Source: a virus. Taken from it: DNA of 64,000 bases. The position numbers were made by a program, and so were the translations under genes. Every line of letters begins with the position of its first letter. Within the stretch, counting starts at the first letter, position 1. Below, one piece after another: positions 9,601-42,550 of this stretch. The notes beneath the pieces were generated by a model. It was not told where the DNA came from, made no database searches, and saw only the letters and a list, made by a program, of their open reading frames with translations. The stretch lies in the IMG/VR virus record IMGVR_UViG_3300045988_160053; one strand, 5' to 3'.

Positions 9601-10545
9601 ATGCTACAATTTGAATTTAATGGTCATACTTCTGATGAATATGGATTGATTGTGACTAGAATAGAAGAAAATGATACTCTTGTAAATCGTTCTTTGCAAT
9701 TAGGAGAAAAGAACAAATATCGACCAAAAGAAAATCAGTTCGGAACATTATATGGTGATAATTATTCATTCAAAATGGGCGTAATGAGAAATCCATGCAG
9801 AAACAAAAATGTAGTTCCAGAATTAAAAAATGGAATTTTAAAATACGATTCAACATATACTCCATATTTAGATAATGGAATTTTAAAATTTTCTATGAAT
9901 TATACAGCTGATATAAAAAATGGAATTATTATTCCAAATGATTCTGATTATTTAACTTCAAATAATATTAGAATCATTAATGCATGGTTAACATCCCCTC
10001 AATATCCAAGGCTTCTTAAATTTATTGGAGACGATTATTTTTCAGAAGAAATCGAATTTTTTGCTACAATTACAGAGGTATCTACAGAACATGCATCTCT
10101 TCCATATGAACTAACATACACAGTAACTTGTGATAGTCAATGGGGATATACTCCTCTTATTTTATGTAAAACAACTTCCTCTTCTACTCTTCCTAGAGAA
10201 TATTCTATTCAGAACAATTCTGATTGTTGGGAAGATTATGTATACCCCACAATTAAAGTTTCTCCAAAATCTCATGGGATAATTACTATAAAGAATAAAA
10301 CCGATAATGGTAGAACAATGAAAATTAATGCATTAAAAAGTGATGATTTCTATATAGATTGTAGAAATTTAAAAATCTACGACATCACAAAGTCAATTGT
10401 TTCATTTGAAGATTTAGGGATTGAGGATATAGATGACATTTATTGGCCTCGTCTTGCTTATGGAGAAAATATATTTGAATTTACAGGTGACGCGACATTT
10501 GAAATCTCATATAGGGAACCACGAAAGGTTGGTGCCTTTGCATGA
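9601..10545 (+). CDS. distal tail protein (Dit-like)
   Basis: N-terminus MLQFEFNGHTSDEYGLIVTRIEE fits the pattern I associate with siphophage Dit/Sipho_tail proteins. Sits between tape measure and Tal. RBS AGAGGTGA. Its stop overlaps the next start (ATGA). Confidence 0.7.
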   Translation: MLQFEFNGHTSDEYGLIVTRIEENDTLVNRSLQLGEKNKYRPKENQFGTLYGDNYSFKMGVMRNPCRNKNVVPELKNGILKYDSTYTPYLDNGILKFSMNYTADIKNGIIIPNDSDYLTSNNIRIINAWLTSPQYPRLLKFIGDDYFSEEIEFFATITEVSTEHASLPYELTYTVTCDSQWGYTPLILCKTTSSSTLPREYSIQNNSDCWEDYVYPTIKVSPKSHGIITIKNKTDNGRTMKINALKSDDFYIDCRNLKIYDITKSIVSFEDLGIEDIDDIYWPRLAYGENIFEFTGDATFEISYREPRKVGAFA

Positions 10546-22100: not shown

Positions 22101-25100
22101 GATCTACAATGACAACAATGCTCTTACTCCAGATTCTGTAGCTAATGCTTGCCCGAATCTAAGAGTAATCAAAATTGAAGCCCCTCACTTTACAAATGAT
22201 AAGAAGGATTTTGTTAAAAATACTTCTATGGAATGTATTTATAAGAATGGGGATCCTAAATTAGATAACTGGAAATTTATTAACTGTTTCCACGCTGGAC
22301 AGGGAACTACAAGTAATGAATATGGTTTTGCTGCCAGAAATATTGATGTTATTTGTTGTGCGGATGGTGTACATCAGATCAATAGTAAGATTCCTCTTGA
22401 TCCTAACTATAAGACAGAGTTAGTTCTTGGTGATGGCACAAAATATGAGGACGGAACTGGTAAGATTAGTCTTACAAGAAACTCTGTTCCAAATAATTGG
22501 TGGAATTTTAAAGTAAATGTAGCATCTTCAAATATGGCAACTAATGCATTAGGACAGAAGAGATTCAACGACTTTTTACCATATGAAAGTCCTGCGGTAC
22601 GTAGAGATCCTAAAGTTAAAAACTCTATGGAATTTGTCAACTGTGTAATCTTTATTAAAGAATCTGATCCTGATATTACTACTCATAGAGAATTTCAGGA
22701 TACAGACTGGCACTTCTACTCTCTCGGTAATATGGGAGATTCAAAGAAGACTGATATTACAAGAGCTTATGATCCAGAGGATATGAAAGAATTCTGTATT
22801 GAGATCAGTGACAATACTCTCCCAAACTCTGCATTCCAGACCGGTATAACAAACCAAGATGGAACTATGAAATATCCTATCAGTAAAGCTGAATGGAAAA
22901 CTGGTAATACAGCATATGATGCTCTGTATAATAACTGGGATGGATCATTTGAATTCAGATATGATTGTTGCGGCGATTCTAAGGATGGTTCTGCTCTTAC
23001 TTCTGATGAAGCAAAAAAGAAAATACGTACAGATAACAAACAGATTTGGAGAGACTTCTATGAGTTTGTAATTACGTCTAGTGATAAAGAATTTAAAGAT
23101 GGCTTGAAAGATTGGTGTATTCAGGATGCAATGCTCTATTTCTATTTAGTTACACTCAGATATAGTATGATTGATAATAGAGCCAAGAATGTTTTCCCGC
23201 ATTGGGCAAAACATTATATCACTCAGGAAGAAGCTACAACTATGGGTGATAAAGCTAAATATTATACTATAGATGATGATGCGGCTGCTCTGCATAATGG
23301 TTATAGATTTGATCTATGGGCATATGATATGGACACTCAGCTTGGTATTAATAATTCAGGTGAGCTGTCATTCCCATATGGTAAGGAAGATACTGACTAT
23401 AAAGAAGAAGGAAATCCTTCATCTGGTTATGTTTTCAATGCTGCTGAATCTGTATTGTGGTGCAGAATACGTGATATATTTACACAAGAATTAAGAAATA
23501 TGTATCAGTCTGTAGACTCTAACTGTTGGTCTGATTCTCATTTAATTAATGAATATGAGGCTTGGCAGAGCCAGTTCCCAGAAGAACTTTGGAGAATCCA
23601 CTATGAAAGATTATATCTGAGAACATATCGTGCTGGAACAGTAAGATTCCTTAATGAGATGATGAATGGACGTGGAAAATATCATCTCAGACAATGGGAA
23701 CGTGACCAGCATATTTATATGGGAACGAAATTCTTACATACAGATGTAAAGTCTGATCAGATTATGTTCAGATGTAATACTCCTAAGAAAGTTGTAGTTA
23801 AACCAGATTATACTCTGAAGATCATTCCTTATTCTGATATGTATATTTCTGTACTTTATGGTAATTCACCAGAAACTACTCAGGTACGTGCAAAAGCCGG
23901 ACAAGAATATAAGATTACTACGGACTTAACAAATATGGATGATACAGCTATTCTTATCTATGCTGCATCAAGAATTGAGGCACTAAATGACCTCTCTGCT
24001 TGTTATATTCATGATAATGATTTCTCAAAGGCTTCTAAGCTGAAAACTCTTATCATTGGTAATAATACAGCTGGATATCAGAATACTTTTATGACATCTC
24101 TTAATATGGGTAATAATACTCTTCTTGAGACTTTGGATATTCGTAATTGTCCAAATCTTACAGGATCTGTTAACCTGTCTGCATGTGAAAATCTTATTAA
24201 TCTTTATGCTGATGGAACTATTGTAACATCTGTATTATTTGCTAATCATGGTAAGATTGCTCATGCTTCTCTACCATCTTCTATTAACACTCTTACACTC
24301 AAGAACCTCAAAGACTTAACTGATCTTAAGGTTGCAGGATACGATAATTTACAGACATTTGTGTGTCAGAACTCTATCGTAGATGCTCTTGCTATCTTAA
24401 ATGCTGCTATTAATACTCTTCGTACCGTAACAATTACTGGTATCTCATGGAATCTTGATGATACTACGCTTCTTCTGAAATTAGCAAAGCTTACTGGTAT
24501 TGATGATAATGGAGCTACTACAGAGCAGTCTGTTCTTACTGGAACCGTACATGTACCTGTAGTCAGACAGCAGGAATATAAAGAATTTGTTGGTTCTGAA
24601 GATGAACCTGGAATCTGGACAGACCTTGTTCTTACTTACGATTCAATCATTACTCAATTCAAAGTTACATTTATAAATGATGATGAAAGTAATACTATCC
24701 TTGATATCCAGTACGTAGATAAAGGTGGAAACGCTGTTGATCCTACTACAAGAGAAGTTAATCCGATTCCTATTCCTACAAAGAAAAGCACAATTAAGCT
24801 TGATTATACCTTCAAAGGATGGGAAGGTTCAATGACAGGAATCTTTGCTGACAGAACTATTACTGCTATATATGACAGTAAAATCCGTGAATATACTGTA
24901 AAATATGTTTCTAAAGGATTATCTCTTCAAGAATCTACTGCCCAGTATGGTTCTTATGTAAAATATACAGGTGATACTCCTGTATATACTGCTGAGGAAT
25001 CTGCTTATAAGTACAATCTGTTTAAAGGATGGGATAAGTCAGGATTTGTCGATGGAAATAAAACGATCAATGCAGTATATGAAACATGCGAATACGTAGA

Positions 25101-26331
25101 TGGATACTTTGATAGTAAGGATCTGGCCAATATGACACAGGTTGAGCTTTATACTCTTATGAAAATGGGACTTGAAGCAAAATCATTATCATTAAAAGAT
25201 ACATTAGATTTCAAACTTGGTGTTGATTATAGCTATGGCGACATTGAAGAGCATGAAGTTATTTCAGCTGCGACTAAATTTGATGGAACAAACTATATTG
25301 ACACCGGATTAAAAATCATGGAAAAAGACAGAGACTTTACAATTGCTATTGACTTTGAATTTGATTCAGGAAATAGTGTAAACTCCACTCTTGCTCAGTG
25401 TTTTCAAGGTGATGGTTCAAATGGATTCAGACTTTGGTATTCTCAGGAACCTCGTTTCTCATGGAATACTGATAGTATAACTCCATCTGCTGGAACAAAC
25501 CGAGAGATTATTGTATTTCGTCATGAAGCTGGAAGTCAGAAGCTTTATATGTACAATTCAAACATGACTGGGAAAGAAGTATCTTCTACTACTCTGAATG
25601 CGATCAGGATTCCAGAGCATAGTTCCACTCTCGTATTTGGATGTTCTAAAGCTGACGATGGAGCATATGAAAACTTTGCAAAAGGCACTATACATTGGGC
25701 TAAAGTCTGGTACGCAGATCTTGGTGAAGAACAATGTATGGATATTGCTGCATGGATCCACGAAGTAATCCCTATGGAAGTGGCTAAGTTTAAAGGATAT
25801 TATCTGTCTGACGTTGCTTCAAAGAGAGCTAACATTACATTTGTTGCTTCTAATCTCCTTGGTACAGAAAAACCTTATAATAATAAGAGCACAAATGCAG
25901 GTGGATGGGCTGATTCTACATTAAATACATGGTTGAATACTCGTATGGTTAAGGCAATCTCTCCTTTATGGAAAGCTCTGATCAAACCTGTAAAAGTATA
26001 CTCTTCTATTGGTAATAAATCTAATGACACTTCTGTATCTAATTGCAGATTCTATGTTCCATCTCTGTACGAAGTTGATCCTACTGCTACTTCTGAACCA
26101 TATATTTCTGAAACAAATGCTCCTATTGCTTATTTCACAGATGATGATACCAGAAAGAAAGCAAAACCTTCTATTCCTGCAGAGTATAAATCTTATTGGA
26201 CCAGATCTCCAAATGCTACAGTTGCAAACTGGTTGTATACGGTTAATGAATCTGGTGCAACATATGGATTCTCTTATCCAGGACAGAATTCTGGAATTTT
26301 ACTTATGTTCTCAATTTCATGCGAGGGGTAA
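19108..26331 (+). CDS. giant mosaic tail fibre/adhesin (2407 aa) with a CotH-like kinase-fold domain
   Basis: Approximate order of segments:
- BppU-like N-domain.
- Coiled coil.
- Several Ig-like segments.
- CotH-like region 22140-23740 (…LRYSMIDNRAKNVFPHW… and …FDLWAYDMDTQLGINN…).
- Leucine-rich repeats 23975-24510.
- Listeria-Bacteroides/InlB B-repeat-like units 24658-25085 (…YTFKGWEG…, …YNLFKGWDKSG…).
- LamG/concanavalin-like region 25270-25725.
- C-terminal domain ending …YWTRSP… (DUF6273-like). Confidence 0.75.
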   Translation: MSFKDSKIAAAANSAMTLSAELAVDTEEYTLCTDGRYEVYTKYQDNAYSTVDNLKNIAVDATQINIMQEENSQYMPFRIPRYWDGMDLMDMLIQIRYESVAEKKGKVATVINVASNNTYIRFGWLIDAAVTANAGDIIFEIMATGVNEKGNNYIWRTRPNGQFTVLQGLNYDGIIEPSEDWYTSFVNMILGHVAEAKQYADEAKASAASINVDDIKADVKTSVMNDLNGTVTESLKAYYTKTEVDTKVKELNTAISGIDSLKNLKVEYDNTTGNLVFKDGTEPIGKPITINSLANLIVEYSVVNGKGSLVFKDGETIIQTVELSSIEPSAEWRAALKQELEAEMDEKDTVISNRIDPLETAKTEIEKNVNANTTAVSEIKTTISNIEKKVESAATKSDEAKNAVDILKQNMTSYDTQFEGINTDITDVKAAIEEIKKNPAAAEYDVTYENSIFTFLKDGEIQKSFKIEGGGGSSSDTTTITIERITNADAIFLLGSKAIIEYSFSSVDNTGDTTGAGTAVWKVGNTIVATNTAAQGNNSFDITEYLNVGANTIRLTITDSFGTLATKTWTVTIVEFKLESTFDDTLLYTNTDVVFRYTPYGNVNKTLHFILDGKDLGTVETQSSGRIMSYNIPKQEHGSHLLKVYMTATINNKEITSNTICKDIICVDPTNRTPIIGCAQQEFTAQQYQATSIKYVVYDPDHNPASVKLSIDGKVQSTLSVNRSAQIWSYKSSTEGKHNLTISCRKVTKILSVNITKLDIDVEPIIANLAFDFNPVGKSNGDTDRLWTDKNNSAITLSVSDNFDWDNGGYQIDASGNQYFCVKAGTTAQINYNLFGKDPKQTGSEFKFVFKTQNVRNASATFLSCIDGTEGSDVGIKMDVHEAYVNTSTDSLYFPYSEEDIIEFEYNINTIDTKDTSATSIIMTYEDGVGGRPLIYDNSHRLHQYSPVPITIGSPDCDVLIYRMKAYSASLTDSDILANFIADARDSDEMIARYNRNQIYNDNNALTPDSVANACPNLRVIKIEAPHFTNDKKDFVKNTSMECIYKNGDPKLDNWKFINCFHAGQGTTSNEYGFAARNIDVICCADGVHQINSKIPLDPNYKTELVLGDGTKYEDGTGKISLTRNSVPNNWWNFKVNVASSNMATNALGQKRFNDFLPYESPAVRRDPKVKNSMEFVNCVIFIKESDPDITTHREFQDTDWHFYSLGNMGDSKKTDITRAYDPEDMKEFCIEISDNTLPNSAFQTGITNQDGTMKYPISKAEWKTGNTAYDALYNNWDGSFEFRYDCCGDSKDGSALTSDEAKKKIRTDNKQIWRDFYEFVITSSDKEFKDGLKDWCIQDAMLYFYLVTLRYSMIDNRAKNVFPHWAKHYITQEEATTMGDKAKYYTIDDDAAALHNGYRFDLWAYDMDTQLGINNSGELSFPYGKEDTDYKEEGNPSSGYVFNAAESVLWCRIRDIFTQELRNMYQSVDSNCWSDSHLINEYEAWQSQFPEELWRIHYERLYLRTYRAGTVRFLNEMMNGRGKYHLRQWERDQHIYMGTKFLHTDVKSDQIMFRCNTPKKVVVKPDYTLKIIPYSDMYISVLYGNSPETTQVRAKAGQEYKITTDLTNMDDTAILIYAASRIEALNDLSACYIHDNDFSKASKLKTLIIGNNTAGYQNTFMTSLNMGNNTLLETLDIRNCPNLTGSVNLSACENLINLYADGTIVTSVLFANHGKIAHASLPSSINTLTLKNLKDLTDLKVAGYDNLQTFVCQNSIVDALAILNAAINTLRTVTITGISWNLDDTTLLLKLAKLTGIDDNGATTEQSVLTGTVHVPVVRQQEYKEFVGSEDEPGIWTDLVLTYDSIITQFKVTFINDDESNTILDIQYVDKGGNAVDPTTREVNPIPIPTKKSTIKLDYTFKGWEGSMTGIFADRTITAIYDSKIREYTVKYVSKGLSLQESTAQYGSYVKYTGDTPVYTAEESAYKYNLFKGWDKSGFVDGNKTINAVYETCEYVDGYFDSKDLANMTQVELYTLMKMGLEAKSLSLKDTLDFKLGVDYSYGDIEEHEVISAATKFDGTNYIDTGLKIMEKDRDFTIAIDFEFDSGNSVNSTLAQCFQGDGSNGFRLWYSQEPRFSWNTDSITPSAGTNREIIVFRHEAGSQKLYMYNSNMTGKEVSSTTLNAIRIPEHSSTLVFGCSKADDGAYENFAKGTIHWAKVWYADLGEEQCMDIAAWIHEVIPMEVAKFKGYYLSDVASKRANITFVASNLLGTEKPYNNKSTNAGGWADSTLNTWLNTRMVKAISPLWKALIKPVKVYSSIGNKSNDTSVSNCRFYVPSLYEVDPTATSEPYISETNAPIAYFTDDDTRKKAKPSIPAEYKSYWTRSPNATVANWLYTVNESGATYGFSYPGQNSGILLMFSISCEG

Positions 26332-31542: not shown

Positions 31543-32085
31543 ATGGCAATTTACAAAGGTGAACAATGTCTTGCTGGAGTTGGTAAGAATGCAACTATTA
31601 AAATTGGTACTGCTAAAACAGGTACTTCGGCTGCAGTAACCAATTCTGGTACAGATACAGATGCAATATTAAATTTTACACTGCCCAAAGGTGATCAGGG
31701 AGTTGGTATTTCAAGTGTTATCCCTCATTATCTTGCAAGTTCTAAATCGCAGGGAGTGACCAGATCAACTACTGGATGGGCGACTTCCGCTCAGGTTATG
31801 ACATCTACAAACAAATATTTGTGGTGCTATCATGAATTTGTTTTATCAAATAATAATCATCTGTATACAAATGCAACCGTTATAGGTGTTTATGGAGATA
31901 AAGGTGATCCGGGCACAACTGATTACAATGGATTACAGAATAAACCGGTCGTTAATGGAGCTGTAACTGCTTATCAGTCAGATATTATGAAATCTCAGTT
32001 AAGGAATGTGACATTCTCTACTGAAGAACCTAAAATAACTGATGGTAAACCTGGTGATATGTGGGTGGTGTATGGCGATGAGTAA
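31543..32085 (+). CDS. fibre adaptor-like protein (180 aa)
   Basis: RBS AAAGGAGG. Ends …KPGDMWVVYGDE. Its stop overlaps the start of the next gene. Confidence 0.6.
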   Translation: MAIYKGEQCLAGVGKNATIKIGTAKTGTSAAVTNSGTDTDAILNFTLPKGDQGVGISSVIPHYLASSKSQGVTRSTTGWATSAQVMTSTNKYLWCYHEFVLSNNNHLYTNATVIGVYGDKGDPGTTDYNGLQNKPVVNGAVTAYQSDIMKSQLRNVTFSTEEPKITDGKPGDMWVVYGDE

Positions 32086-34708
32086 TATTAAAACTGGTGA
32101 TATTTTAAACTTTGATTATACTGGTACTGTCCAAACTGTAACACTTCCTAAAGGTACATATAAGTTGGAGTGTTGGGGTGCTCAAGGAGGATACAGTTCT
32201 TCTAATTCAGGAATAGAGGTTGGTATGGGCGGAAAAGGTGGATACTCCGCTGGAACTATTACACTAAACCAAAAAACACTTATATATATTTATACTGGTG
32301 GAGTTGGTAGCATAAGTGGCAACGGTAAAGCAGATGGTGGATTTCCTAATGGTGGTTCATCTTGGGCTTCCAGCACAAGCGAAGGTGCTGGTGGTGGCGG
32401 TGGATCATCCGATATCCGTATTGGTACCGATTCATTGTATGCTCGTGTTATCGTAGCTGGAGGTGGCGGAGGTGGCGGTGAAGACAACGAAACTGGCGGA
32501 TATGGTGGCGGTGAAACTGGCGGAACTTCAGGTTCTGGAACACCTGGTAGTCAAACTGCTCCAAGTGGATATTTTGGAATCGGCGGTCATACTTCCTATG
32601 ATGGTGGAGGTGGTGGCGGTGGATGGTATGGTGCTGATCCAGCCGGTGGTCAAACAACTCCAGCTACCGGTAGCAGTGGAAGTGACACATCTGGCTCTCC
32701 TGGAGGATCTGGTTACGTTTATACTTCTGCTACAGCCTCTAATTACCCGTCAGGTTGTTTATTAAACTCTTCTTATTACTTATCTGCTGCTAAAACCATA
32801 GCAGGTAACACTTCTTTTACATCTCCCACAGGTTCATCTGAGACAGGGCACTCTGGGAACGGCTATTGTCGAATTACTGTTATTGAATGCAAGAATACGG
32901 CGCTATATACCAGAATAAACAATTCAATGAAAAAGGCTACTGCTTTTTATTTCAAATTAAATAATAACAAAATGTACGGCGTTGGATCTGCTAATTATAA
33001 TGGTTCTGTTATGAATTTTGATTATACTGGTTCGGTTCAAACTGTTACATTGGCTCCTGGTACATATAAACTTGAATGCTGGGGCGCTCAAGGTGGGAAT
33101 GGATCATCTAATGGTAATTCTAATATAAATGCAGTTGGTGGTCTTGGTGGATATAGTGTTGGCACCATTACATTAAGTAAAACACAAAAAGTATATATAT
33201 ATTCTGGTGGAAAAGGACAAACTAAATCAAATACCGGTAGCTATTCTACTGTTAATGGTGGATTTAACGGCGGTGGGTCAAATTATACTTGTGGTTCCGG
33301 AGGTTCTGGTGGCGGTGGATCGGATATAAGGATCGGAACTGATTCATTATATGCAAGAGTAATTGTTGCAGGCGGCGGTTCTGGAACAGGATGGACAATT
33401 AAAGGTGCCGCTGGCGGTGGAATATTAGGCTTATCAAACTATAATTCATCTTACAATAGTACTCAAACAGCAGGAGGAATAGCTTATACTTCAGCTTACA
33501 ATATAATGCCCACAGCTGGCACTTTTGGTATAGGTGGCAATGGTTCCGGTTCTTCAGAAGGCGGTTCTGGCGGTGGAGGCGGCTGGTATGGAGGTGGCGG
33601 AGCCGGATATACGGGCGGTTCTAGTGGTGGATCAGGTTATGTCTACACTTCTGTCACTGCTTCAAATTATCCAAATGGTTGTTTACTTAACTCTTCTTAT
33701 TATCTTTCTAATGCTCAAACTATTGCCGGAGATCAATCGTTCCCTGCTCCTTCTGGTTCTACAGAAACTGGTCATTCTGGTAATGGACATGTAAAAATCA
33801 CTAAATTATCAGATGTAATATATCTTACTCATGCTAAGAACAACATAATGGATTTTAATTATACAGGTTCAGTACAATCTAAAACTCTAAAACCAGGTAC
33901 GTATACAATAGAATGCTGGGGTGGCCAAGGAGGAACTTACAGTAGTTACATAGGCGGATACGGTGGTTATTCCAAGGGTACTATTACTCTTACTGAAGCA
34001 ACTACTGTTTATATATCTGTTGGTGGGGCTGGATCTTCCTCTTCTACTGCTGCAGGATTCAATGGTGGAGGAACTGGTATTTCTTCTGGTAGAGGTGGTG
34101 GAGGAGCTACAGATGTTCGTATAGGTCAAAATTCTCTATATTCAAGAGTTATCGTAGCCGGAGGTGGCGGCGGAGCTGGTGTAACAAGTGCCAATGCTAA
34201 TCCTTGTGGTTGTGGCGGTGGAGAATATGGTGGAGATGGATATTACAATGATACCACTGGTTCTTATACTATAGGTCAAAATAGATGTGGTGGTAGTGCC
34301 TCACAAACTGCAGGTGGCAAAACATGGAGCACGAGCACTCAGGCTACTTTTGGTCAAGGCGGAAATGCTTCAGGCTACTCTTGTGGTGGTGGCGGAGGCG
34401 GCTGGTATGGCGGTGGTGGAGCCTATGACAGTGATTCTGACTCTGATGGACGTTGGGGTGGAGGAGGCTCAGGATATGTTTATACCTCTTCTACAGCTAA
34501 AAATTACCCTAACGGATGTCTACTAAATTCTACTCATTATCTCACAAATGCTCAGACTATCGCAGGAAACACTTCTTTTACTTCTCCTACAGGATCAGCA
34601 GAAACTGGTCACACAGGCAGTGGATTCTGCAGAATTACAAATTTGAACCCAACACAATATGGATTATACGTAAAAACGAACTCTGGTTGGAAACACATAG
34701 ATTTATAA
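32078..34708 (+). CDS. glycine-rich (PF12810-like) three-module adhesin-like tail protein
   Basis: Three modules of about 270 aa start near 32101, 33009 and 33845. Each runs NF[DN]YTG.VQ..TL.PGTY.[LI]ECWG[AG]QGG … GG.GGYS.GTITL … GGG[GA].[ST]D[IV]RIG..SLY[AS]RVIVAGGGGG … GGGGGWYG … GGSGYVYTS … ETGH[ST]G[NS]G.[CV][RK]IT. Start trimmed to ATG 32078 (ATGAGTAA overlap with the upstream stop). ATG 32072 is also possible, and the track start 32042 is unlikely. Confidence 0.8.
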   Translation: MSNIKTGDILNFDYTGTVQTVTLPKGTYKLECWGAQGGYSSSNSGIEVGMGGKGGYSAGTITLNQKTLIYIYTGGVGSISGNGKADGGFPNGGSSWASSTSEGAGGGGGSSDIRIGTDSLYARVIVAGGGGGGGEDNETGGYGGGETGGTSGSGTPGSQTAPSGYFGIGGHTSYDGGGGGGGWYGADPAGGQTTPATGSSGSDTSGSPGGSGYVYTSATASNYPSGCLLNSSYYLSAAKTIAGNTSFTSPTGSSETGHSGNGYCRITVIECKNTALYTRINNSMKKATAFYFKLNNNKMYGVGSANYNGSVMNFDYTGSVQTVTLAPGTYKLECWGAQGGNGSSNGNSNINAVGGLGGYSVGTITLSKTQKVYIYSGGKGQTKSNTGSYSTVNGGFNGGGSNYTCGSGGSGGGGSDIRIGTDSLYARVIVAGGGSGTGWTIKGAAGGGILGLSNYNSSYNSTQTAGGIAYTSAYNIMPTAGTFGIGGNGSGSSEGGSGGGGGWYGGGGAGYTGGSSGGSGYVYTSVTASNYPNGCLLNSSYYLSNAQTIAGDQSFPAPSGSTETGHSGNGHVKITKLSDVIYLTHAKNNIMDFNYTGSVQSKTLKPGTYTIECWGGQGGTYSSYIGGYGGYSKGTITLTEATTVYISVGGAGSSSSTAAGFNGGGTGISSGRGGGGATDVRIGQNSLYSRVIVAGGGGGAGVTSANANPCGCGGGEYGGDGYYNDTTGSYTIGQNRCGGSASQTAGGKTWSTSTQATFGQGGNASGYSCGGGGGGWYGGGGAYDSDSDSDGRWGGGGSGYVYTSSTAKNYPNGCLLNSTHYLTNAQTIAGNTSFTSPTGSAETGHTGSGFCRITNLNPTQYGLYVKTNSGWKHIDL

Positions 34709-34723
34709 AAGGAGGGCTTAACT

Positions 34724-34999
34724 ATGCCGATTATATTTCACGGAACAGGTAGTGGCGGCTCTGCTAAAAAACTAAAAACCGCACGAACTATTAATGGTAC
34801 GAATTTTGATGGTACAGCTAATATTACTACTGCTAATTGGGGAACAACAAGAACCGTTACTGTAGGAAATACAAGTAAATCTGTAAATGGATCTGGAAAC
34901 GTAAGTTGGTCGTTAGCTGAAATAGGTATTCATCTTTCAACAACGGAACCTGCAGCTAGTGACGGAAAAAATGGAGATATTTGGATTACTTATGAATAA
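34724..34999 (+). CDS. mini fibre/adaptor protein (91 aa) with Phage_fiber_2-like repeat
   Basis: AKKLKTARTINGTNFDGTANIT matches the KL.T.R.I.G..FDG..NI fibre repeat. Ends KNGDIWITYE, like the 180-aa protein. RBS AAAGGAGGG. Confidence 0.6.
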   Translation: MPIIFHGTGSGGSAKKLKTARTINGTNFDGTANITTANWGTTRTVTVGNTSKSVNGSGNVSWSLAEIGIHLSTTEPAASDGKNGDIWITYE

Positions 35000-35023
35000 A
35001 AGACTGAAAGGAAGGTGAGGCTT

Positions 35024-35665
35024 ATGGCTTGTAGTAATGGATGTGGAACTTCTTGTTCTACTGACTGCACTCATTCATCATCTGGTGGATGTGGTGGTTC
35101 TTGTGGTGGTTCTTGCTCTACTAACTGTACTGGTGGATGTTCTGGATATTGTGATGGAACTTGTAAGGGAGGTTCAGGAAGTACTTGTTCTGACTGTACT
35201 GCCAAATGTGCTAATGACTGTACCGGAGCTTGTACAAATGCTTGTGTAACCGGATGCACTGGCTGTGGGAACAACTGTGATGGAGACTGTACAAGCGCCT
35301 GTGCTCAAAGGTGCTCTAATGATTGCAATGCTGCATGTACTGCTACTTGTGCTTATGATTGCGAACATACTTGCACTGCTTCTTGTGCCAACGACTGCAC
35401 CAGTTGTGGTGGATCTTGCTCAAGTAATTGCTCAGGAAATTGTGATTCCGGTTGTTATACTGGTTGTTATGGTTGTGATTCTACCTGTTCTGGTGGTTGT
35501 TCTGGCACTTGTAATACTACTTGCACTACCACTTGCGCCAATGACTGCACTGGCGGGTGCAAAGGAACCTGTACAGGTGGATGTGGTGGTTCTTGTGATA
35601 ATTCATGCGGCTTTTCTTGTGAAGCTTCATGTGATAACAATTGTACTGCTGTTTGTTCTGTATCT
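35024..35665 (+). repeat. coding 12-nt periodic Cys-X-X-X repeat tract (about 50 units)
   Basis: A TGT/TGC codon recurs every fourth codon (CSNGCGTSCSTDC…CDNNCTAVC). The units are degenerate at the DNA level. The tract creates spurious ORFs in other frames and on the opposite strand. Confidence 0.9.
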
Positions 35666-37465
35666 TCTGTGTATGGTGGAAACTCAGAGAAGAGTGTATT
35701 GAATTTTGCTTATACAGGTAAAGCTCAATCTGTAACCCTTGAGCCTGGAAAATATGTTCTTGAATGTTGGGGAGCACAGGGAGGTTATCGTTCTAATTCT
35801 AGTTATGGTGGAAAAGGTGGCTATTCTACAGGGACTTTAACATTGACTCAAAAAACTACTATATACATATATGTCGGTGGATCTGGAAATTCTGTTACAT
35901 CAGCATCAAATTCAATCTATCCCGGAGGTTTCAATGGTGGTGGATATAGATACAATTATAAAGGTGGTGGTGGCGCTACTGATATTCGTATTGGAAGTGC
36001 TTCTTTATATGCCCGTGTTATCGTTGCAGGTGGCGGTGGTTCTGATGGTAGTCCTAATTATAGTGGTGGGTATGCAGGTGGTGTATCTGGTACTAGGGGA
36101 AATTTTGGATGTGGTTCATATGGATATGGTGGATCTCAAACTGCTTCATATTCATCTTTAAGTGCTATTAATTCACAAGGCACCACAAATTCTTCTTCTA
36201 ACTGTGCTGCTGGTTTTGGTTTCGGTGGTTTTGGATGTTATTACGCTTCAGGTTACGGTGGAGCCGGTGGCGGAGGATGGTACGGTGGACAAGGTACTTA
36301 TCCTGATGGTTCTGGAGATGATGATGGCGGTGGCGGAGGTGGATCTGGTTACGTTTATACTTCCTCTTCTGCTTCTAACTATCCTCAAGGCTGTCTCCTA
36401 AATTCATCTTACTATCTTTCTGATGCTTCTAATTTATCTGGCAATGAATCTTTCAAATCTCCTTCTGGTGCTACAGAAACTGGTCATTCTGATAATGGCT
36501 ATTGTAGGATTACCTGTTATGTCAAAAAGAAAACTCTACATTGTAAAATGAACAATGAAATTAAAAAAGCAGCTCCAGTATTTATGAAAATGAACAATAA
36601 AATTTATGATGCTGGCGCTAATGCTGTAATGGATTTTGCTTATACAGGAACAGCTCAAGCTATATCACTTCCAAGAGGAAAATATATTATAGAATGCTGG
36701 GGCGCTCAAGGCGGTTCATATAGTAGTTATTATGGTGGTGCTGGAGGATATTCTGTCGGAACCATAACTCTAACTAAAAATTCTACGGATTTATATATTT
36801 ATGTTGGTGGACAACCAGAAGCTACAACTTCAACAGGTGAAACACCTGGTGGATTTAACGGAGGAGGAAAAGGTTGTTCAAGAACTTATAATTATAGTAG
36901 TTATGGACAAGGTGGCGGCGGTGCAACCGATGTTCGTATAGGAAAAAATGATCTTTATGCTAGAGTTATTGTCGCTGGTGGCGGCGGAGGTTCATCATCA
37001 GAAAATTCGCTTACAACAAAATATGGCGGTGGAACTACTGGTGGTTCTTCTGCTTCTGGATATGGAGCTACACAAACTGCTGCAGGTACAAATGGTTCGT
37101 TTGGTCAAGGTGGTTCTGCAACAACTTCTGGAACTAATTATAATTATGGTTCCGGCGGTGGTGGAGGTGGATGGTATGGTGGTGGTGCATGTTCTGATTA
37201 TAGTGACAGCACTAACTACCGAGGCTATAATGGCGGAGGTTCAGGATATGTTTACACTTCAGCTACTGCTGCTAATTATCCAAGTGGTAATTATGTAAAT
37301 TCTTCTTACTACCTTACCAATGCGCAAACTATAGCAGGAAATCAATCATTTAAATCACCTGATGGAACAAATGAAACAGGCCATACCGGAAATGGTTTCT
37401 GTCGAATCACCCGTAAATCAGGAAAAATATTTGTAAAACAAAACGGTTCATGGATCAAAGTATAA
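35024..37465 (+). CDS. CXXX-repeat / glycine-rich two-module tail-fibre-like protein (putative radical SAM maturase substrate)
   Basis: ATG 35024 is preferred over the track's GTG 35015 because the GGAAGGTGAGG RBS is well spaced. Residues 3 to about 207 carry 52 Cys, almost all at C-x-x-x spacing. Two PF12810-like modules follow, starting near 35695 and 36627 and ending ETGHSDNGYCRIT / ETGHTGNGFCRIT. Confidence 0.85.
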   Translation: MACSNGCGTSCSTDCTHSSSGGCGGSCGGSCSTNCTGGCSGYCDGTCKGGSGSTCSDCTAKCANDCTGACTNACVTGCTGCGNNCDGDCTSACAQRCSNDCNAACTATCAYDCEHTCTASCANDCTSCGGSCSSNCSGNCDSGCYTGCYGCDSTCSGGCSGTCNTTCTTTCANDCTGGCKGTCTGGCGGSCDNSCGFSCEASCDNNCTAVCSVSSVYGGNSEKSVLNFAYTGKAQSVTLEPGKYVLECWGAQGGYRSNSSYGGKGGYSTGTLTLTQKTTIYIYVGGSGNSVTSASNSIYPGGFNGGGYRYNYKGGGGATDIRIGSASLYARVIVAGGGGSDGSPNYSGGYAGGVSGTRGNFGCGSYGYGGSQTASYSSLSAINSQGTTNSSSNCAAGFGFGGFGCYYASGYGGAGGGGWYGGQGTYPDGSGDDDGGGGGGSGYVYTSSSASNYPQGCLLNSSYYLSDASNLSGNESFKSPSGATETGHSDNGYCRITCYVKKKTLHCKMNNEIKKAAPVFMKMNNKIYDAGANAVMDFAYTGTAQAISLPRGKYIIECWGAQGGSYSSYYGGAGGYSVGTITLTKNSTDLYIYVGGQPEATTSTGETPGGFNGGGKGCSRTYNYSSYGQGGGGATDVRIGKNDLYARVIVAGGGGGSSSENSLTTKYGGGTTGGSSASGYGATQTAAGTNGSFGQGGSATTSGTNYNYGSGGGGGGWYGGGACSDYSDSTNYRGYNGGGSGYVYTSATAANYPSGNYVNSSYYLTNAQTIAGNQSFKSPDGTNETGHTGNGFCRITRKSGKIFVKQNGSWIKV

Positions 37466-37503
37466 CACTTTGGTCCATATTTAAATTACGAGGAGGAATT
37501 GTT

Positions 37504-37902
37504 ATGAAACTTATTTTTAAAGACGGACAAGAATTAGTTATTACTCGTGCTAACGATACATATTCATATGAAGGATATAAAGATGGGTTAGGAAATGATA
37601 TGAACAAAAATATTGTAGCTACTATTTCTATCTTCAATTCTGATAAATCTTTAAACACTATTAAGGATATGATTACTGATGACAATAGAACAGGTTTTAA
37701 AATTATTTATGGGAATACCCAGAAAGATTATACTGGAATGAAAATTGAAAGTATTTCAGAAGAAATCTCCAATGAAAGAAGTGTTATTAATATCTCATTA
37801 GCTACAGATAAAACCATAGCTCCTACTGAGACCACTGGAACAACAACAGAAAAAACTAAAGAAGAAACTAAAGAAAAAACGGAAACAGCTTCTGATAAAT
37901 AA
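37504..37902 (+). CDS. hypothetical protein (132 aa) with Thr/Glu/Lys-rich tail
   Basis: Trimmed to ATG 37504, 5 nt after the GAGGAGGAA RBS; the track start 37450 overlaps the previous gene. No motif. Confidence 0.6.
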   Translation: MKLIFKDGQELVITRANDTYSYEGYKDGLGNDMNKNIVATISIFNSDKSLNTIKDMITDDNRTGFKIIYGNTQKDYTGMKIESISEEISNERSVINISLATDKTIAPTETTGTTTEKTKEETKEKTETASDK

Positions 37903-37927
37903 TTAAGAATGAAAGGAATATAAGGAT

Positions 37928-38266
37928 ATGAGAAAAATAATCGTAAAGGTTGATAAAGAAAAAGCTACAGAGCTTGAAAGAGTTAATTTTGAATTAAACT
38001 TCGTAAAAGACATTGTACAGAGAGTTATTGAATCACATCCAAGCGATTTAGAACTCATCAATGGAGATACTCTTATGTCTTACAATAAACGTGGTGCAGA
38101 ATTACAGAGAAAGTATGCTGCTCTTGCAAATGAGATGGAAAAGGAATACATCCCAGAATACCTCGAAGGTCATCAGTATAGTTGGATTATTCCAAATAAT
38201 TCTGATGAAATGACTATTACTATTAAATGTAATTGTGAGATTCCAGAATTAGAGGGAATAGCATGA
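37928..38266 (+). CDS. small accessory protein translationally coupled to the radical SAM maturase (possible CXXX-repeat modification system partner)
   Basis: 112 aa with a GAAAGGAATATAAGGAT RBS. Its stop overlaps the maturase start (ATGA at 38263-38266). The function is inferred from context only. Confidence 0.5.
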   Translation: MRKIIVKVDKEKATELERVNFELNFVKDIVQRVIESHPSDLELINGDTLMSYNKRGAELQRKYAALANEMEKEYIPEYLEGHQYSWIIPNNSDEMTITIKCNCEIPELEGIA

Positions 38267-39594
38267 AAAGAACAGAACAATATTCGGACCAGATAGCTAG
38301 ACTTTATCCATCTAAGAAGGTAAAAACCGATGACGGACAAAGAATATTAACACAGAGTATCACTTTTCAAGTAACTGATGATTGCAACCTTGCGTGTCTA
38401 TATTGTTACCAAGGACACAAAGGAAAAAATCGAATGTCGTTTGAAACAGCTAAGAAATTCTTTGATTTAGTTGTATCAGGTGAAAAAGGTTTTAAATCTT
38501 ATATCAATCCAGAGAAATCTCCTGGATTGGTTGTAGATTTCATTGGAGGAGAACCCTTTCTTGAGATAGAGCTTATAGATCAAATCTGTACTTATATTAT
38601 GGATAAACTCATAGAGTTGGATCATCCTTGGGCCATGAAAACTATGTTCTCTATTTGTTCAAATGGTGTTTTATACAGGGACGAAAAAGTACAAGCATTT
38701 CTTCGTAAATGGGCCAATAGATTATCTTTCTCAGTTACTATTGATGGGAATAAAGAATTACATGATTCCTGCCGAGTTTTTCCAGATGGTGGTCCAAGTT
38801 ATGACATAGCTGTCGATGCTGCGTCAGATTGGATGAAACGTGGAAATCATATGGGAAGCAAGATCACAATTGCTCCGGGCAATATCAGCTTTCTATACGA
38901 TGCTATTAAGCATATGGTCGATCTTGGATATGATGAAATCAATGCCAATTGTGTATATGAAAAGGGTTGGACACCTGTACATGCAACTGTTCTTTATGAT
39001 CAAATGAAACGTATATCTGATTATTTCTTGGAACAGAATTTTGATTTTGAACGTGATTTCTTCTGTTCCCTTTATAATGAAGACTTCTTTCAGCCTAAAG
39101 ATCCTGATGATTTACAAAGTTGGTGTGGAGGCGTTGGTAATTCAATGATTGCTTGCGATCCTCAAGGTCGCATATTTCCATGTATCAGATATATGGAATC
39201 TTCTCTTAATGGAGAGCAAGAACCGTACTCTATTGGTGATGTAGATAATGGTATAGGATGCACAGAATGTTATAAATGCAGAATTAATTGTATGGCAAAA
39301 ATAGATAGAAGGACACAGAGTACAGATGAATGTTTCTATTGTCCTATAGCTGCAGGATGTTCTAATTGTTCTGGTTATGATTATCAAGTGAATGGTACTC
39401 CTGACTCAAAAGCTACTTATATATGTGTTATGCATAAAGCTCGTGCTCTTGGGAATCTGTATTTCTGGAATAAATATTATAGAAAAAATAATATGAGTAA
39501 GCGAATGAAAAACTATGTGCCAGATGAATGGGCGCTTGAGATTATTTCTGAATCAGAACTTAATATGTTGAAAGAACTTGAAAGAGAGGATTAA
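38263..39594 (+). CDS. radical SAM / SPASM-domain peptide maturase
   Basis: CNLACLYC (CX3CX2C, nt about 38383-38406) within FQVTDDCNLACLYCYQ. GGEPFLE motif. C-terminal Cys cluster WCGGVGNSMIACDPQGRIFPC … CTECYKCRINC … CFYCPIAAGCSNC, typical of SPASM auxiliary Fe-S domains. Confidence 0.85.
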   Translation: MKRTEQYSDQIARLYPSKKVKTDDGQRILTQSITFQVTDDCNLACLYCYQGHKGKNRMSFETAKKFFDLVVSGEKGFKSYINPEKSPGLVVDFIGGEPFLEIELIDQICTYIMDKLIELDHPWAMKTMFSICSNGVLYRDEKVQAFLRKWANRLSFSVTIDGNKELHDSCRVFPDGGPSYDIAVDAASDWMKRGNHMGSKITIAPGNISFLYDAIKHMVDLGYDEINANCVYEKGWTPVHATVLYDQMKRISDYFLEQNFDFERDFFCSLYNEDFFQPKDPDDLQSWCGGVGNSMIACDPQGRIFPCIRYMESSLNGEQEPYSIGDVDNGIGCTECYKCRINCMAKIDRRTQSTDECFYCPIAAGCSNCSGYDYQVNGTPDSKATYICVMHKARALGNLYFWNKYYRKNNMSKRMKNYVPDEWALEIISESELNMLKELERED

Positions 39595-39612
39595 AAGCCT
39601 CTCTTTTTTATT
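39583..39612 (+). terminator. intrinsic terminator closing the fibre/maturase operon
   Basis: AGAGAGG (39583-39589) pairs with CCTCTCT (39598-39604). 8-nt loop, then TTTTTTATT. Overlaps the maturase stop codon. Confidence 0.6.
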
Positions 39613-39634
39613 GACTAAAAGGAGGCTTGATATT

Positions 39635-41305
39635 ATGGCAGAAATTAAAGGAATTGATGTTTCCAGATGGAATGGAAACATCGACTGGAAAACTGTTGCT
39701 AGTTATGGAATGGGCTTCGCTATCCTAAGAATTACAGAAAAAGGAAATATTGTTGATAGCACATTCGAACCTAATTATAAAGGCTGTATTGAGAATAAGA
39801 TTCCTGTTGGAGTCTATAAATACAGCTATGCTACTACTATTGCTCAGATTGAAGATGAAGCAAATGTAGTTATTAAAACATTGAATAAAAGAAAACTGGA
39901 TTATCCAGTGTTTCTTGATATAGAGGATAAATGTCAGGAGAATTTATCTGACAGTTTAATGATGAAAATGATCGAAGCTTTTAGAGCTATTATTGTCAAA
40001 GCTGGATATAAATTTGGTATTTACTGTGGTTATTCTTGGTATCAGAACCAGTTACCAAAAGGTGCTAAAAAGTACGATTGCTGGGTTGCTCGATATCCTA
40101 ATAATGATACCGGTGAATTACAGGAAAGATTAAGAGTTCCTGCTTCTACTGGTGTTATTGGATGGCAATATTCTAGTAAGGCAACCATTCCTGGTATTCC
40201 AACAAAAACCGATCGAAGTGTATTCTATAAAGACTATTCTAAATCTTCTACTACTTCTACAAACTCTCTCAAACCAACAACTACACAAGGAAGTGATACT
40301 ATGAATAAAGATAAAGCTATTGATGCTCTTATTGCTTGCGCTGAAAATGAGGTTGGATATTTAGAGAAGAAATCTAATTCTCAGCTTGATGATAAAACTG
40401 CAAATGCAGGTTACAATAACTACACTAAATACTGGAGAGACGTATATCCTCAGTATCAGGCACAGGCTTGGTGTGCAGCGTTTGTGAGTTGGTGCATGAT
40501 GAAAACATTCGGTCTTGATGTAGCTAAAAAACTCCTTAAACATTGGCCTTATGTATACTGTCCTACTCTTGGAAATCTCTTCACAAAGTATGCAAATCCA
40601 CAGCGAGGAGACATTGTGATCTTCTATCGTAACGGTACTTTTGCACATACAGGAATTGTCACAAAAGTTGAAGGTGATAAGTTTTATACTATTGAAGGGA
40701 ATACTTCAGCTGGCTCTACTGTTGTTCCAAATGGTGGAGGAGTTTTTGCTAAATCTTATTACAATTCTAATCTTCCAGGCACTAAATTCTGTCGTCCAGA
40801 CTATTCTATTGTCACATCTATTTTAACATCTACTGCACCTGTACAGCCATCTTATACTGCATGGGTAGGTTCTTGTACAGCTAATGGAACAGATGTATTC
40901 TCAGACGCTACAGGAGCTTCTAAGCTAAGTACATATCCTAAACTTAATGCAGGTAATCTTGTGGATATCATCGGTGAATCTGGTACAAGATATCAGGTTC
41001 GTATCGCTGCAAAATATATAGGGTATGTAGAAAAATCTAACATTAAAAATCCTAATACTCCTGCTGCAACAACTACAAAAAAATATCCATTTGTAGGAAA
41101 AGTAACTGCAAGTAAATTGAATGTTCGCAAAAAACCCGGTACTGAACATCCATTACTTCCAGAGTATCCGATGTTAAATAAAGACAATCTTGTTAATGTC
41201 CTCGGAGTTACAAAAGATACTAAAGGTAACAGATGGTACAAAGTATCAATTACTAAAAATGAATATGTTGGCTATGTATCAGCCAAATATATTACTAAGG
41301 CATAA
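39635..41305 (+). CDS. endolysin: GH25 muramidase + CHAP peptidase + two SH3b domains
   Basis: Trimmed to ATG 39635 (RBS AAAGGAGG).
- GH25: GIDVSRWNGNIDW and FLDIED, about 39635-40240.
- Ser/Thr linker.
- CHAP: AWCAAFVSW Cys and FAHTGIV His, about 40300-40810.
- Two SH3b-like repeats at about 40850-41040 and 41085-41300. Confidence 0.85.
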   Translation: MAEIKGIDVSRWNGNIDWKTVASYGMGFAILRITEKGNIVDSTFEPNYKGCIENKIPVGVYKYSYATTIAQIEDEANVVIKTLNKRKLDYPVFLDIEDKCQENLSDSLMMKMIEAFRAIIVKAGYKFGIYCGYSWYQNQLPKGAKKYDCWVARYPNNDTGELQERLRVPASTGVIGWQYSSKATIPGIPTKTDRSVFYKDYSKSSTTSTNSLKPTTTQGSDTMNKDKAIDALIACAENEVGYLEKKSNSQLDDKTANAGYNNYTKYWRDVYPQYQAQAWCAAFVSWCMMKTFGLDVAKKLLKHWPYVYCPTLGNLFTKYANPQRGDIVIFYRNGTFAHTGIVTKVEGDKFYTIEGNTSAGSTVVPNGGGVFAKSYYNSNLPGTKFCRPDYSIVTSILTSTAPVQPSYTAWVGSCTANGTDVFSDATGASKLSTYPKLNAGNLVDIIGESGTRYQVRIAAKYIGYVEKSNIKNPNTPAATTTKKYPFVGKVTASKLNVRKKPGTEHPLLPEYPMLNKDNLVNVLGVTKDTKGNRWYKVSITKNEYVGYVSAKYITKA

Positions 41306-41865: not shown

Positions 41866-41870
41866 TTTAT

Positions 41871-41907
41871 GGGTAGTCAAGCATTATACTTGGCTACCCA
41901 TTTTTTT
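41871..41907. terminator. terminator hairpin between convergent late operon and minus-strand gene
   Basis: GGGTAGTCAAG (41871-41881) pairs with CTTGGCTACCC (41889-41899) including one G-U pair. 7-nt loop, followed by ATTTTTTT on the + strand. Confidence 0.6.
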
Positions 41908-42175
41908 ACTTTGATTCTTTATCAAGCATATTCCGAACGTCTTCTACAGAAAGTCCTTTTTCTCGAAGTAATTTGGCAAGATCTTTCATAGACTGTTCTT
42001 CTTTTACGGCTGCTTCTTTCTTCTCTGCTGCAACAAAATCTTTAGAAAGATTCTTTTTCTGCAATTTAAGAGTCTTAAGCTCGTCAGTAAGCTTAGTAAT
42101 TTGTTCTTCTGTTGATGCAATCTGCGCTTTAACTTCTTCAGTTGTTAATTCCACTACTCGTCTTTTACCTCTCAT
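41906..42175 (-). CDS. small coiled-coil protein (89 aa)
   Basis: Track ORF with an AGGAGGTAC RBS. Charged heptad sequence. It would lie at a prophage end after integration at the proposed attP. Confidence 0.6.
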   Translation of the reverse strand: MRGKRRVVELTTEEVKAQIASTEEQITKLTDELKTLKLQKKNLSKDFVAAEKKEAAVKEEQSMKDLAKLLREKGLSVEDVRNMLDKESK

Positions 42176-42205
42176 TTGAAGTACCTCCTGACATAATTAT
42201 AAATA

Positions 42206-42234
42206 ATCATATCATAAAATTATTAAAGGTACAA
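42206..42234 (-). promoter_or_regulatory. candidate sigma-A promoter for the 89-aa gene
   Basis: On the minus strand: TTGTAC (42234-42229), a 17-nt spacer, then TATGAT (42211-42206), about 30 nt upstream of ATG 42175. AT-rich context, so it could be a chance match. Confidence 0.35.
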
Positions 42235-42319
42235 GATGTCACCGGAGTGTTAACATCATTTACCTACCTCCTCTGGTAGTTATTTTAGGAAAATTGTCTC
42301 ATTGTACTGTTTAGTTTTG

Positions 42320-42544
42320 ACACCATTTGTACACCATTTTTGTGTTAAGTTACGTGAAGATATAACATGATACGTGAATGTTAATCCTTTAAATTCAATA
42401 TATAATGGTTAAAAATGGTCATATTTATTTAATTTCATGTTCCTCATGGAAATGCTTATATTTTTCTATAAGTCGTTTATAGGTCCCTGTAAAATCAATG
42501 ATTTTAATGTGCTAATACTGATTTTACACCATTTTTACACCATT
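42320..42544. repeat. two pairs of direct repeats ACACCATT(T) flanking about 185 bp: candidate integrase arm-type sites / attP
   Basis: ACACCATTT at 42320-42328 and 42331-42339. ACACCATTT at 42526-42534 and ACACCATT at 42537-42544. Spacing within each pair is 11 bp. Located in the 375-bp non-coding gap next to the integrase 3' end. Confidence 0.4.
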
Positions 42545-42550
42545 CTATAG

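Follow-up and report, generated by a model that had tools for sequence, protein, structure and literature searches.

The 64,000-nucleotide stretch of viral DNA analysed here (IMG/VR record IMGVR_UViG_3300045988_160053; hereafter the window) encodes on its plus strand, at 35024..35665, a tract in which cysteine recurs every fourth residue (the CXXX-repeat tract) and which opens a protein resembling a tail fibre. Downstream on the same strand lies the gene for a radical S-adenosylmethionine (SAM) enzyme with a SPASM domain, a member of a database family of maturases named for CXXX-repeat targets, and the tract is very probably the substrate domain of this co-encoded enzyme. As to the chemistry, we lean towards short-range cysteine thioethers, through which the enzyme would install a stapled stalk in the fibre of the virion.

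The cysteine tract and its gene

The tract spans residues 1-214 of the gene product, with cysteines from residue 3 to residue 211 of the ATG-started protein, and its translation opens with MACSNGCGTSC and finishes with CTAVCSVS (MACSNGCGTSCSTDC...CDNNCTAVCSVS). The initial annotation, made from the sequence alone, had counted 52 cysteines in about 205 residues; the count of 52 is confirmed over a span of 209 residues, and its breakdown of the 51 spacers proved exact, with 45 of three residues, four of two (SD, TG, TS and YG) and two of seven (THSSSGG and KGGSGST). Apart from the 52 cysteines, these 209 residues consist of G (37), T (30), S (29), N (16), A (15), D (14) and a few others, the spacers being built almost entirely from these six residues. 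Four-residue spacings between cysteines, 45 in the tract, averaged 5.4 and reached at most 17 in 100,000 composition-preserving shuffles, and the reported periodicity is therefore far beyond chance. Tandem Repeats Finder detected in the tract DNA only 12-nt arrays of 2.6 copies or fewer, and the Cys codons are mixed (37 TGT and 15 TGC), indicating that the period is kept at the protein level, as had been proposed. Among the open reading frames (ORFs) of the window, the tract is unique to the gene at 35024-37465.

Two further compositional claims fared less well. The striking excess of Asp or Asn described immediately before Cys dissolves on counting, since D and N together occupy spacer positions 1, 2 and 3 of the tract 8, 9 and 12 times (chi-square p=0.57, not significant), nor is it a feature of the family. 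A position-specific residue bias is marginal and not significant inside the window tract alone (permutation p=0.09), but holds family-wide in a different form: in a pool of 133 non-redundant tracts with 4043 Cys, the unit reads C-[S/T]-G-[G/S/T], with Gly accounting for 39% of position 2 and K, Y, Q and R all but confined to position 1 (chi-square p~1e-193 over 3105 three-residue spacers). The window tract holds four CANDC units, and CA[ND]DC occurs in 17 of the 133 tracts. A 20-residue super-repeat, CTATCANDCTGGCKGxC, was considered as a general periodicity and rejected, as it is present in only 4-17 of the 133 tracts and represents a sub-lineage motif.

The gene carrying the tract (35024..37465, plus strand) encodes 813 residues, in which the tract is followed by a first glycine-rich domain (GRD) of the ALK/LTK type at 35693..36520 (SVLNFAYTG to CRITCY) and a second at 36623..37417 (AVMDFAYTG to CRITRK), with a PF12810 match at E=2.9e-97. 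Its start is ATG 35024, and not the GTG 35015 of the program-made ORF list, because the ribosome-binding site (RBS) GGAAGGTGAGG lies at 35010..35020, between the TAA that closes the preceding ORF and this ATG. The gene matches phrog_1589, phrog_5811 and phrog_7388, while the tract itself matches phrog_6085, and the product can be read from its sequence as a putative tail-fibre or receptor-binding-like protein with the tract as N-terminal domain. A paralogue at 32078..34708 (plus strand), delimited from the ORF list and Pfam, has three GRDs and no CXXX tract; in agreement with the contrast first drawn between the two genes, Pfam places three PF12810 stretches in the paralogue ORF (32042-34708) and two in the CXXX gene.

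Because the sequence is repetitive and of low complexity, the tract might be taken for a functionless linker generated by replication slippage, an explanation that conservation effectively refutes. The DNA units are degenerate, and the length hypervariability between near-identical phages that had been named as the mark of such a linker was not found, given that 31 of 33 phages with near-identical radical SAM enzymes keep exactly 211 residues and 52 Cys, with no Cys substitution in any. Over 23 DNA haplotypes, the Cys codons present seven synonymous and no non-synonymous segregating sites, and the ratio of non-synonymous to synonymous polymorphism (pN/pS) is 0.157 in the tract versus 0.095 in the rest of the gene, so that the tract is under purifying selection with invariant cysteines. 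Two phages (L024 and L039, ~6740-9200) carry a mosaic swap of the central third of the tract, resulting in 55 Cys, a pattern more suggestive of recombination with a second CXXX gene than of slippage. Conservation of the N- and C-terminal units furthermore extends across lineages whose radical SAM enzymes are 67-81% identical: when fused tracts are compared with the stand-alone tracts of related phages, the first ~25 and last ~40 residues align, and the middle differs by insertions and deletions of whole units. Stand-alone all-CXXX proteins (L064 and L084) end in ...GQATTPIYSFN, a sequence resembling the first GRD strand (SVLNFAYTG, window 35693-35719), and this likeness may indicate that a fusion or fission event, placed precisely at the domain boundary, connects the fused proteins with the free ones.

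The search for other CXXX tracts and their fusion partners suggested in the initial annotation, conducted with HMMER on 1.84 billion representative proteins, returned 185 tract proteins at E<=1e-3. Many of them are 400-2440 residues long with the tract at one end, and the partner domains are of adhesin type (Listeria-Bacteroides repeats, InlB B-repeats, Ig-like domains and CBM_4_9), the tract behaving as a transferable module in proteins of the fibre or adhesin kind. At the extremes, two proteins of 1600-1700 residues (P0090 and P0094) bear C-terminal CXXX tracts of ~500 residues, and a 669-residue protein from a 'Tenericutes' metagenome-assembled genome (L111, 5120-7126) has 144 tract Cys.

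The maturase and its linkage to CXXX tracts

The radical SAM/SPASM enzyme (38263..39594, plus strand; 443 residues) matches the NCBIfam model TIGR04115, 'radical SAM peptide maturase, CXXX-repeat target family', with 520 bits against a cutoff of 350 (E=3.9e-156, model positions 1-359). Its gene is two small genes downstream of the CXXX gene, and the tract ends ~2.6 kb upstream of it on the same strand. In an alignment of homologues with 35-82% identity, the invariant residues comprise C41/C45/C48, GGEP and the SPASM cysteines C288, C307, C357, C360, C366, C369 and C388. The next-best NCBIfam matches, all to families that form Cys thioethers and all below their cutoffs, are PapB (166 bits), SCIFF (99), QhpD (96) and CcpM (94). 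The closest relative in the PDB is CteB (5WGG, E=4e-19), likewise a thioether-forming enzyme, with which the maturase aligns only from CteB residue 91, indicating that the N-terminal peptide-recognition domain is missing; consistent with this, the maturase begins ~30 residues before its CX3CX2C motif.

Two accessory genes lie between the CXXX gene and the maturase. The first (37504..37902, plus strand) encodes 132 residues from ATG 37504 behind an AGGAGG RBS; its homologues adjoin the cassette in 79 of 162 loci, and it has no match in Pfam, NCBIfam, PHROG or PDB. The second (37928..38266, plus strand) encodes a 112-residue partner with an invariant CxC at its C-terminus, shares an ATGA overlap with the maturase gene, to which it is translationally coupled, and is found directly upstream of the radical SAM gene throughout Firmicutes-type loci. 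The AlphaFold2 (AF2) model of this partner, with a predicted local distance difference test (pLDDT) score of 90, is a helical hairpin on a three-stranded sheet. A discrete, PqqD-like recognition element (RRE) for a ribosomally synthesised and post-translationally modified peptide (RiPP) was considered for it and rejected, the best Foldseek E-value being 0.74, to generic helical hairpins, and a PDB profile search being empty. Together with the TIGR04115 enzyme, the 132- and 112-residue proteins would make up a maturation cassette with the tract as its substrate. A hairpin with a 12-bp stem (37450..37478, plus strand) overlaps the CXXX-GRD stop codon and lies directly upstream of the RBS for the 132-residue gene, and may be an attenuator between structural and maturation genes that lowers expression of the latter relative to the former.

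The association of enzyme and tract was assessed in 80 loci from a scan of IMG/VR for the enzyme and 80 from a scan of one genome per prokaryotic species. Every IMG/VR locus with sequence upstream of the enzyme has a same-strand ORF with a CXXX tract there, and 72 of the 80 bacterial-genome loci have an adjacent CXXX ORF, making the linkage near-universal; tract size varies from ~8 to 144 Cys across the loci. The CXXX-GRD fusion of the window recurs in L001-L040, with radical SAM enzymes 81-100% identical. In L041-L080 (67-70% identical), two stand-alone CXXX proteins are instead followed by the ~110-residue partner and the enzyme inside a baseplate/fibre block; one is of ~190 residues, with an N-terminal domain of ~110 residues and 17 Cys, and the other is an all-CXXX protein of 213-267 residues with 51-64 Cys. 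One of these loci, L069, has the same order of genes as the window. The ~110-residue N-terminal domain (...LK..VK.EM.RR...) stands ahead of tracts in 86 loci, including most Firmicutes phage and prophage loci (for instance L069 8328-8858 and L081 6517-7095), and the tracts that follow it open with a conserved C-[RG]-[GA]-[AL]-C-[ST]-G-L-C; it is unannotated in Pfam and PHROG, and the window lineage lacks it.

The hosts of the prokaryotic loci are Blautia, Lachnospiraceae, Oscillospiraceae and Clostridia, with Bacteroidales at 38-40% identity. In isolates of Desnuesiella massiliensis and Neglectibacter timonensis, the cassette resides in a prophage whose genes run in the order tape measure, baseplate, fibre, CXXX protein, partner, radical SAM enzyme and endolysin, as in the window. 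The Bacteroidales form comprises small CXXX proteins with twin-arginine translocation (Tat) signals, a TIGR04119 protein and dedicated TatA/TatC, with no 112-residue partner directly upstream of the enzyme and only weak matches to it, of ~93 residues, downstream. In three such loci (L164 8001-12547, L165 3741-8287 and L082), the CXXX protein is accompanied by the radical SAM enzyme, the TIGR04119 protein, an ORF of ~94 residues, TatA and TatC. The TIGR04119 protein scores 235 bits in L082, whereas in the window this second SPASM-like protein ('CXXX repeat peptide maturase') is absent, the radical SAM enzyme itself being the sole match to the model; TIGR04119 thus appears to mark a subtype and not the whole CXXX family.

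Searches of GenBank phages place these systems outside its cultured collection. Megablast of 32000-40000 returned no match, and tblastn with the radical SAM enzyme found identity above 30% only in two uncultured human-faecal contigs, the other hits being unrelated radical SAM enzymes of jumbo phages at ~24%; no cultured phage of the collection has the system by this search. A further arrangement was seen in L163 (638-5292), where a protein of 814 residues, encoded after a PAAR-motif gene, contains ~300 residues of (C-E-T/V-G)n with Glu in every unit; onward lie two small ORFs, then another SPASM radical SAM enzyme, extended at its N-terminus and only 24% identical, and then genes for a glycosyltransferase and for gp25/baseplate-J. 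L163 may represent a system parallel to the CXXX one in which the acidic acceptor is obvious.

The name 'peptide maturase' in NCBIfam and the existence of stand-alone all-CXXX proteins of 213-267 residues in related phages would accord with a different role for the tract, as a multi-core RiPP precursor cleaved off the fibre and released as small bioactive peptides. We consider this highly improbable, as Pfam, NCBIfam and PHROG identify no protease, transporter or leader peptide in the cassette, many lineages join the tract in frame to adhesin or fibre domains, and it sits within tail and baseplate gene blocks.

Predicted chemistry of the cysteines

If the tract is the substrate, its maturation can be envisaged as follows. 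The CXXX-GRD protein would be produced during the late stage of infection, in a Gram-positive anaerobe of the gut, and the enzyme, probably in complex with the 112-residue partner, would move along the unstructured tract rich in Cys, Gly, Ser and Thr. By means of 5'-deoxyadenosyl radicals, it would join Cys sulfurs to nearby backbone or side-chain carbons in short intramolecular thioethers of the sactipeptide or ranthipeptide type. The resulting covalently laced stalk, resistant to reduction and to proteases, would then display both receptor-binding-like GRDs at the tip of the tail. Such a stalk would suit a virion whose assembly takes place in a reducing cytoplasm and which, once released, meets an anoxic gut in which disulfides are presumably unreliable.

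Thioethers are favoured because the characterised relatives of the enzyme make them, because Cys is the sole invariant residue of the unit, because the unmodified tract is predicted to lack a fold and because export of the Bacteroidales relatives through Tat implies a product finished in the cytoplasm beforehand. The initial annotation had envisaged a thioether ladder made by a maturase on Thr, Asp and Asn side chains. Membership of the enzyme in TIGR04115, above its cutoff, and its thioether-forming relatives support the ladder and the maturase; the argument from Asp or Asn preceding Cys has to be dropped, as does the notion that Asp, Asn and Thr explain the whole ladder. In the window tract, which is relatively rich in this respect, D or E is present in the spacer following 15 of the 52 Cys, compared with 572 of 4043 (~14%) in the family, where D/E is entirely missing from 8 of the 133 tracts. 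For this reason, a strictly PapB-like Cys-Asp chemistry is not the general reaction of the family.

Structural predictions bear on the same question. AF2 modelling of the unmodified tract from a 44-sequence alignment gave a mean pLDDT of 45, no strands and no confident fold; a PDB sequence search found no relative of the tract, and Pfam, searched at E<=1, no metallothionein or any other family. Two- and three-residue spacers are mixed throughout the family (737 versus 3105), which argues against the fixed coil length of a solenoid. The composition of the tract is, we presume, similar to that of the disulfide-laced beta-helix antifreeze proteins of insects, which would favour the disulfide reading considered next.

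A density of 25% Cys among small polar spacers, together with the Tat export of the Bacteroidales relatives, which is typical of cofactor-bearing proteins, could also be explained if the cysteines were metal thiolates, as in metallothioneins or Fe-S proteins, or formed a ladder of disulfides in the virion, with the radical SAM enzyme acting on few sites or on another target. We disfavour both alternatives and judge them improbable, since they leave the near-universal link to a dedicated radical SAM enzyme of the same operon unexplained and the Pfam, PDB and AF2 results offer no family, relative or fold for them. Metallothioneins are characterised by CXC and CXXC patterns, unlike the regular C-X3-C spacing of 45 of the 51 spacers here, and disulfides would presumably be unstable in the anoxic, reducing gut and could not form in the cytoplasm where the protein is synthesised.

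Greater weight is due to the possibility that the enzyme and substrate are paired as proposed and the cysteines undergo another reaction, be it formylglycine formation, desulfurisation or dehydroalanine formation, epimerisation, or links between Cys units in which Cys is donor as well as acceptor. SPASM enzymes span a wide range of reactions (PMC10114670), the maturase reaches the cutoff of no characterised thioether family, and Cys is the only invariant residue of a unit in which D/E acceptors are scarce. Formylglycine is countered by the score of the anaerobic sulfatase maturase model, only 41 bits as opposed to 166 for PapB, 99 for SCIFF and 96 for QhpD, and dozens of such residues in one structural protein would be without precedent. 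Overall we deem another cysteine chemistry unlikely, although it is the weightiest of the rivals, followed in turn by metal binding or disulfides, by released peptides and by the functionless linker.

Several points weigh against a thioether-stapled stalk. The CXXX family is known from database models alone, and the maturase lies well below the PapB, SCIFF and QhpD cutoffs, so the chemistry may differ. The scarcity of D/E acceptors, both here and across the family, would require Ser, Thr, Gly or backbone carbons to serve for the remaining Cys. No RRE or leader peptide is recognisable, and the partner is without a known fold in PDB and Foldseek comparisons. Fifty-two SAM-consuming turnovers per polypeptide are costly, the mixture of spacer lengths would argue against one regular architecture, and the place of the CXXX protein in the virion is deduced from gene order only.

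It is conceivable, and we advance it tentatively, that gut phages infecting anaerobes deploy an enzyme of their own to make the Cys-repeat domain of a virion fibre a poly-thioether rod held by dozens of staples, and that the links are of a new type, joining Cys to Ser, Thr or Gly carbons or one Cys unit to another, because most units lack the known acceptor residues. If true, viral structural proteins would gain their first example of RiPP-type radical chemistry, the reach of radical SAM RiPP enzymes would grow beyond small peptides to structural proteins of large size, and irreversible thioether lacing would constitute a new viral route to stable virion parts in the anoxic, reducing gut. The phage loci are compact cassettes of three to four genes, ready for co-expression and mass spectrometry, and an activity with no recognisable leader or RRE on a repetitive substrate would be attractive for protein-stapling biotechnology, as in the work on PapB.

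Tail-module context and comparison with known systems

The genes of the window follow the order Dit, Tal-like, fibre genes, GRD genes, cassette and endolysin. The tail module includes a giant ORF of 2802 residues (1130-9538), which has no PHROG match and only three Cys and is possibly a tape measure of exceptional length, followed by a Dit-like gene (9601-10545) and a giant Tal/fibre-like gene of 2029 residues (10542-16631); it also includes a giant ORF of 2407 residues (19108-26331) and, by PHROG, a 964-residue fibre. After the cassette come an endolysin of the GH25-CHAP-SH3 type, which points to a Gram-positive host, and a strong terminator (41869-41901). Gene orientation and GC skew flip at ~41900-42550, past this terminator, and the ORFs to the right are all on the minus strand. 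Related IMG/VR contigs measure 85-177 kb.

Just upstream of the CXXX gene, a 91-residue ORF (34724..34999, plus strand) with tail-fibre N-terminal repeat motifs and PHROG tail-fibre matches is probably an adaptor or anchor of the CXXX-GRD protein; it is present only in the window lineage L001-L040. Since this ORF and the CXXX gene share a frame and are separated by one TAA and five codons, a single gene expressed by read-through was considered and ruled out: the TAA stop is followed by a strong RBS and an ATG, and the paralogue is arranged alike, which identifies them as two genes. A small ORF bearing tail-fibre repeat motifs stands ahead of each GRD gene (31543-32085 and 34724-34999), and the two ORFs end in similar motifs (DGKPGDMWVVYGDE and DGKNGDIWITYE).

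Among the phage proteins with PF12810 in phrog_1589, phrog_5811 and phrog_7388, all annotated as of unknown function, the C-terminal two-thirds of the CXXX-GRD protein and its paralogue are clear members, and among the loci examined the CXXX tract is fused to a GRD only in the lineage of the window (L001-L040).

Of the characterised families, PapB, the maturase of freyrasin in Paenibacillus polymyxa, gives the best score (166.5 bits, E=9e-49), although against a cutoff of 340. PapB forms cross-links from Cys S to Asp C-beta in the repeated CSANDA units of PapA and accepts CXnD with n=0-6 (PMC9413430), and the CANDC units of the window are reminiscent of CSANDA. In contrast to PapA, the window protein has 52 Cys instead of six, most of its units lack an acidic acceptor, no leader peptide precedes the tract, which starts at residue 3, no RRE is found, and the presumed substrate is part of a structural protein, not a peptide destined for secretion. 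A protein substrate is known from QhpD, a SPASM radical SAM enzyme that introduces several Cys thioethers in the protein subunit QhpC, and not in a released peptide (PMC10114670). The maturase scores 96 bits with the QhpD model, however, against a cutoff of 453, and QhpC is a non-viral, non-repetitive protein with few cross-links to Asp/Glu. The SCIFF maturases CteB and Tte1186, CefB (Cys-every-fifth) and CcpM (Cys-rich) share the SPASM architecture and the dedication of a radical SAM enzyme to Cys-rich targets. They differ from the window enzyme in that the N-terminal RRE of ~90 residues in CteB is missing here, in that the scores are far below the cutoffs and in that their targets are of ~45 residues.

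The closest correspondence is with the CXXX-repeat system of NCBIfam (TIGR04115, TIGR04114/PF27846 'tSAM_targ_Cxxx_rpt', TIGR04117 and TIGR04119), with which the window shares an above-cutoff maturase and an adjacent CXXX protein. The window tract scores 14.6 bits with TIGR04114 (cutoff 20) and 20.6 with TIGR04117 (cutoff 50), while the stand-alone orthologue in L069 passes TIGR04114 with 27.1 bits and the relatives found with the tract carry PF27846. The target in the window differs from those of the NCBIfam system in being the N-terminal domain of an 813-residue fibre-like protein and not a small peptide, and the Bacteroidales form differs in its TIGR04119 protein, Tat signal and TatA/TatC, none of which occur in the window, where the 112- and 132-residue proteins specific to the phage form are found instead. 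We found no paper on the CXXX-repeat system, its chemistry or its phage-tail setting, and the TIGRFAMs paper of 2013 does not mention the family. The pairing of enzyme and target is already recorded in NCBIfam and in Pfam PF27846, and the phage proteins are listed in PHROGs under phrog_6085 and phrog_1802, of unknown function; new here are the fusion of a CXXX tract to a glycine-rich fibre protein and a cassette with phage-specific accessory genes that lacks the second maturase and the Tat export of the cellular form.

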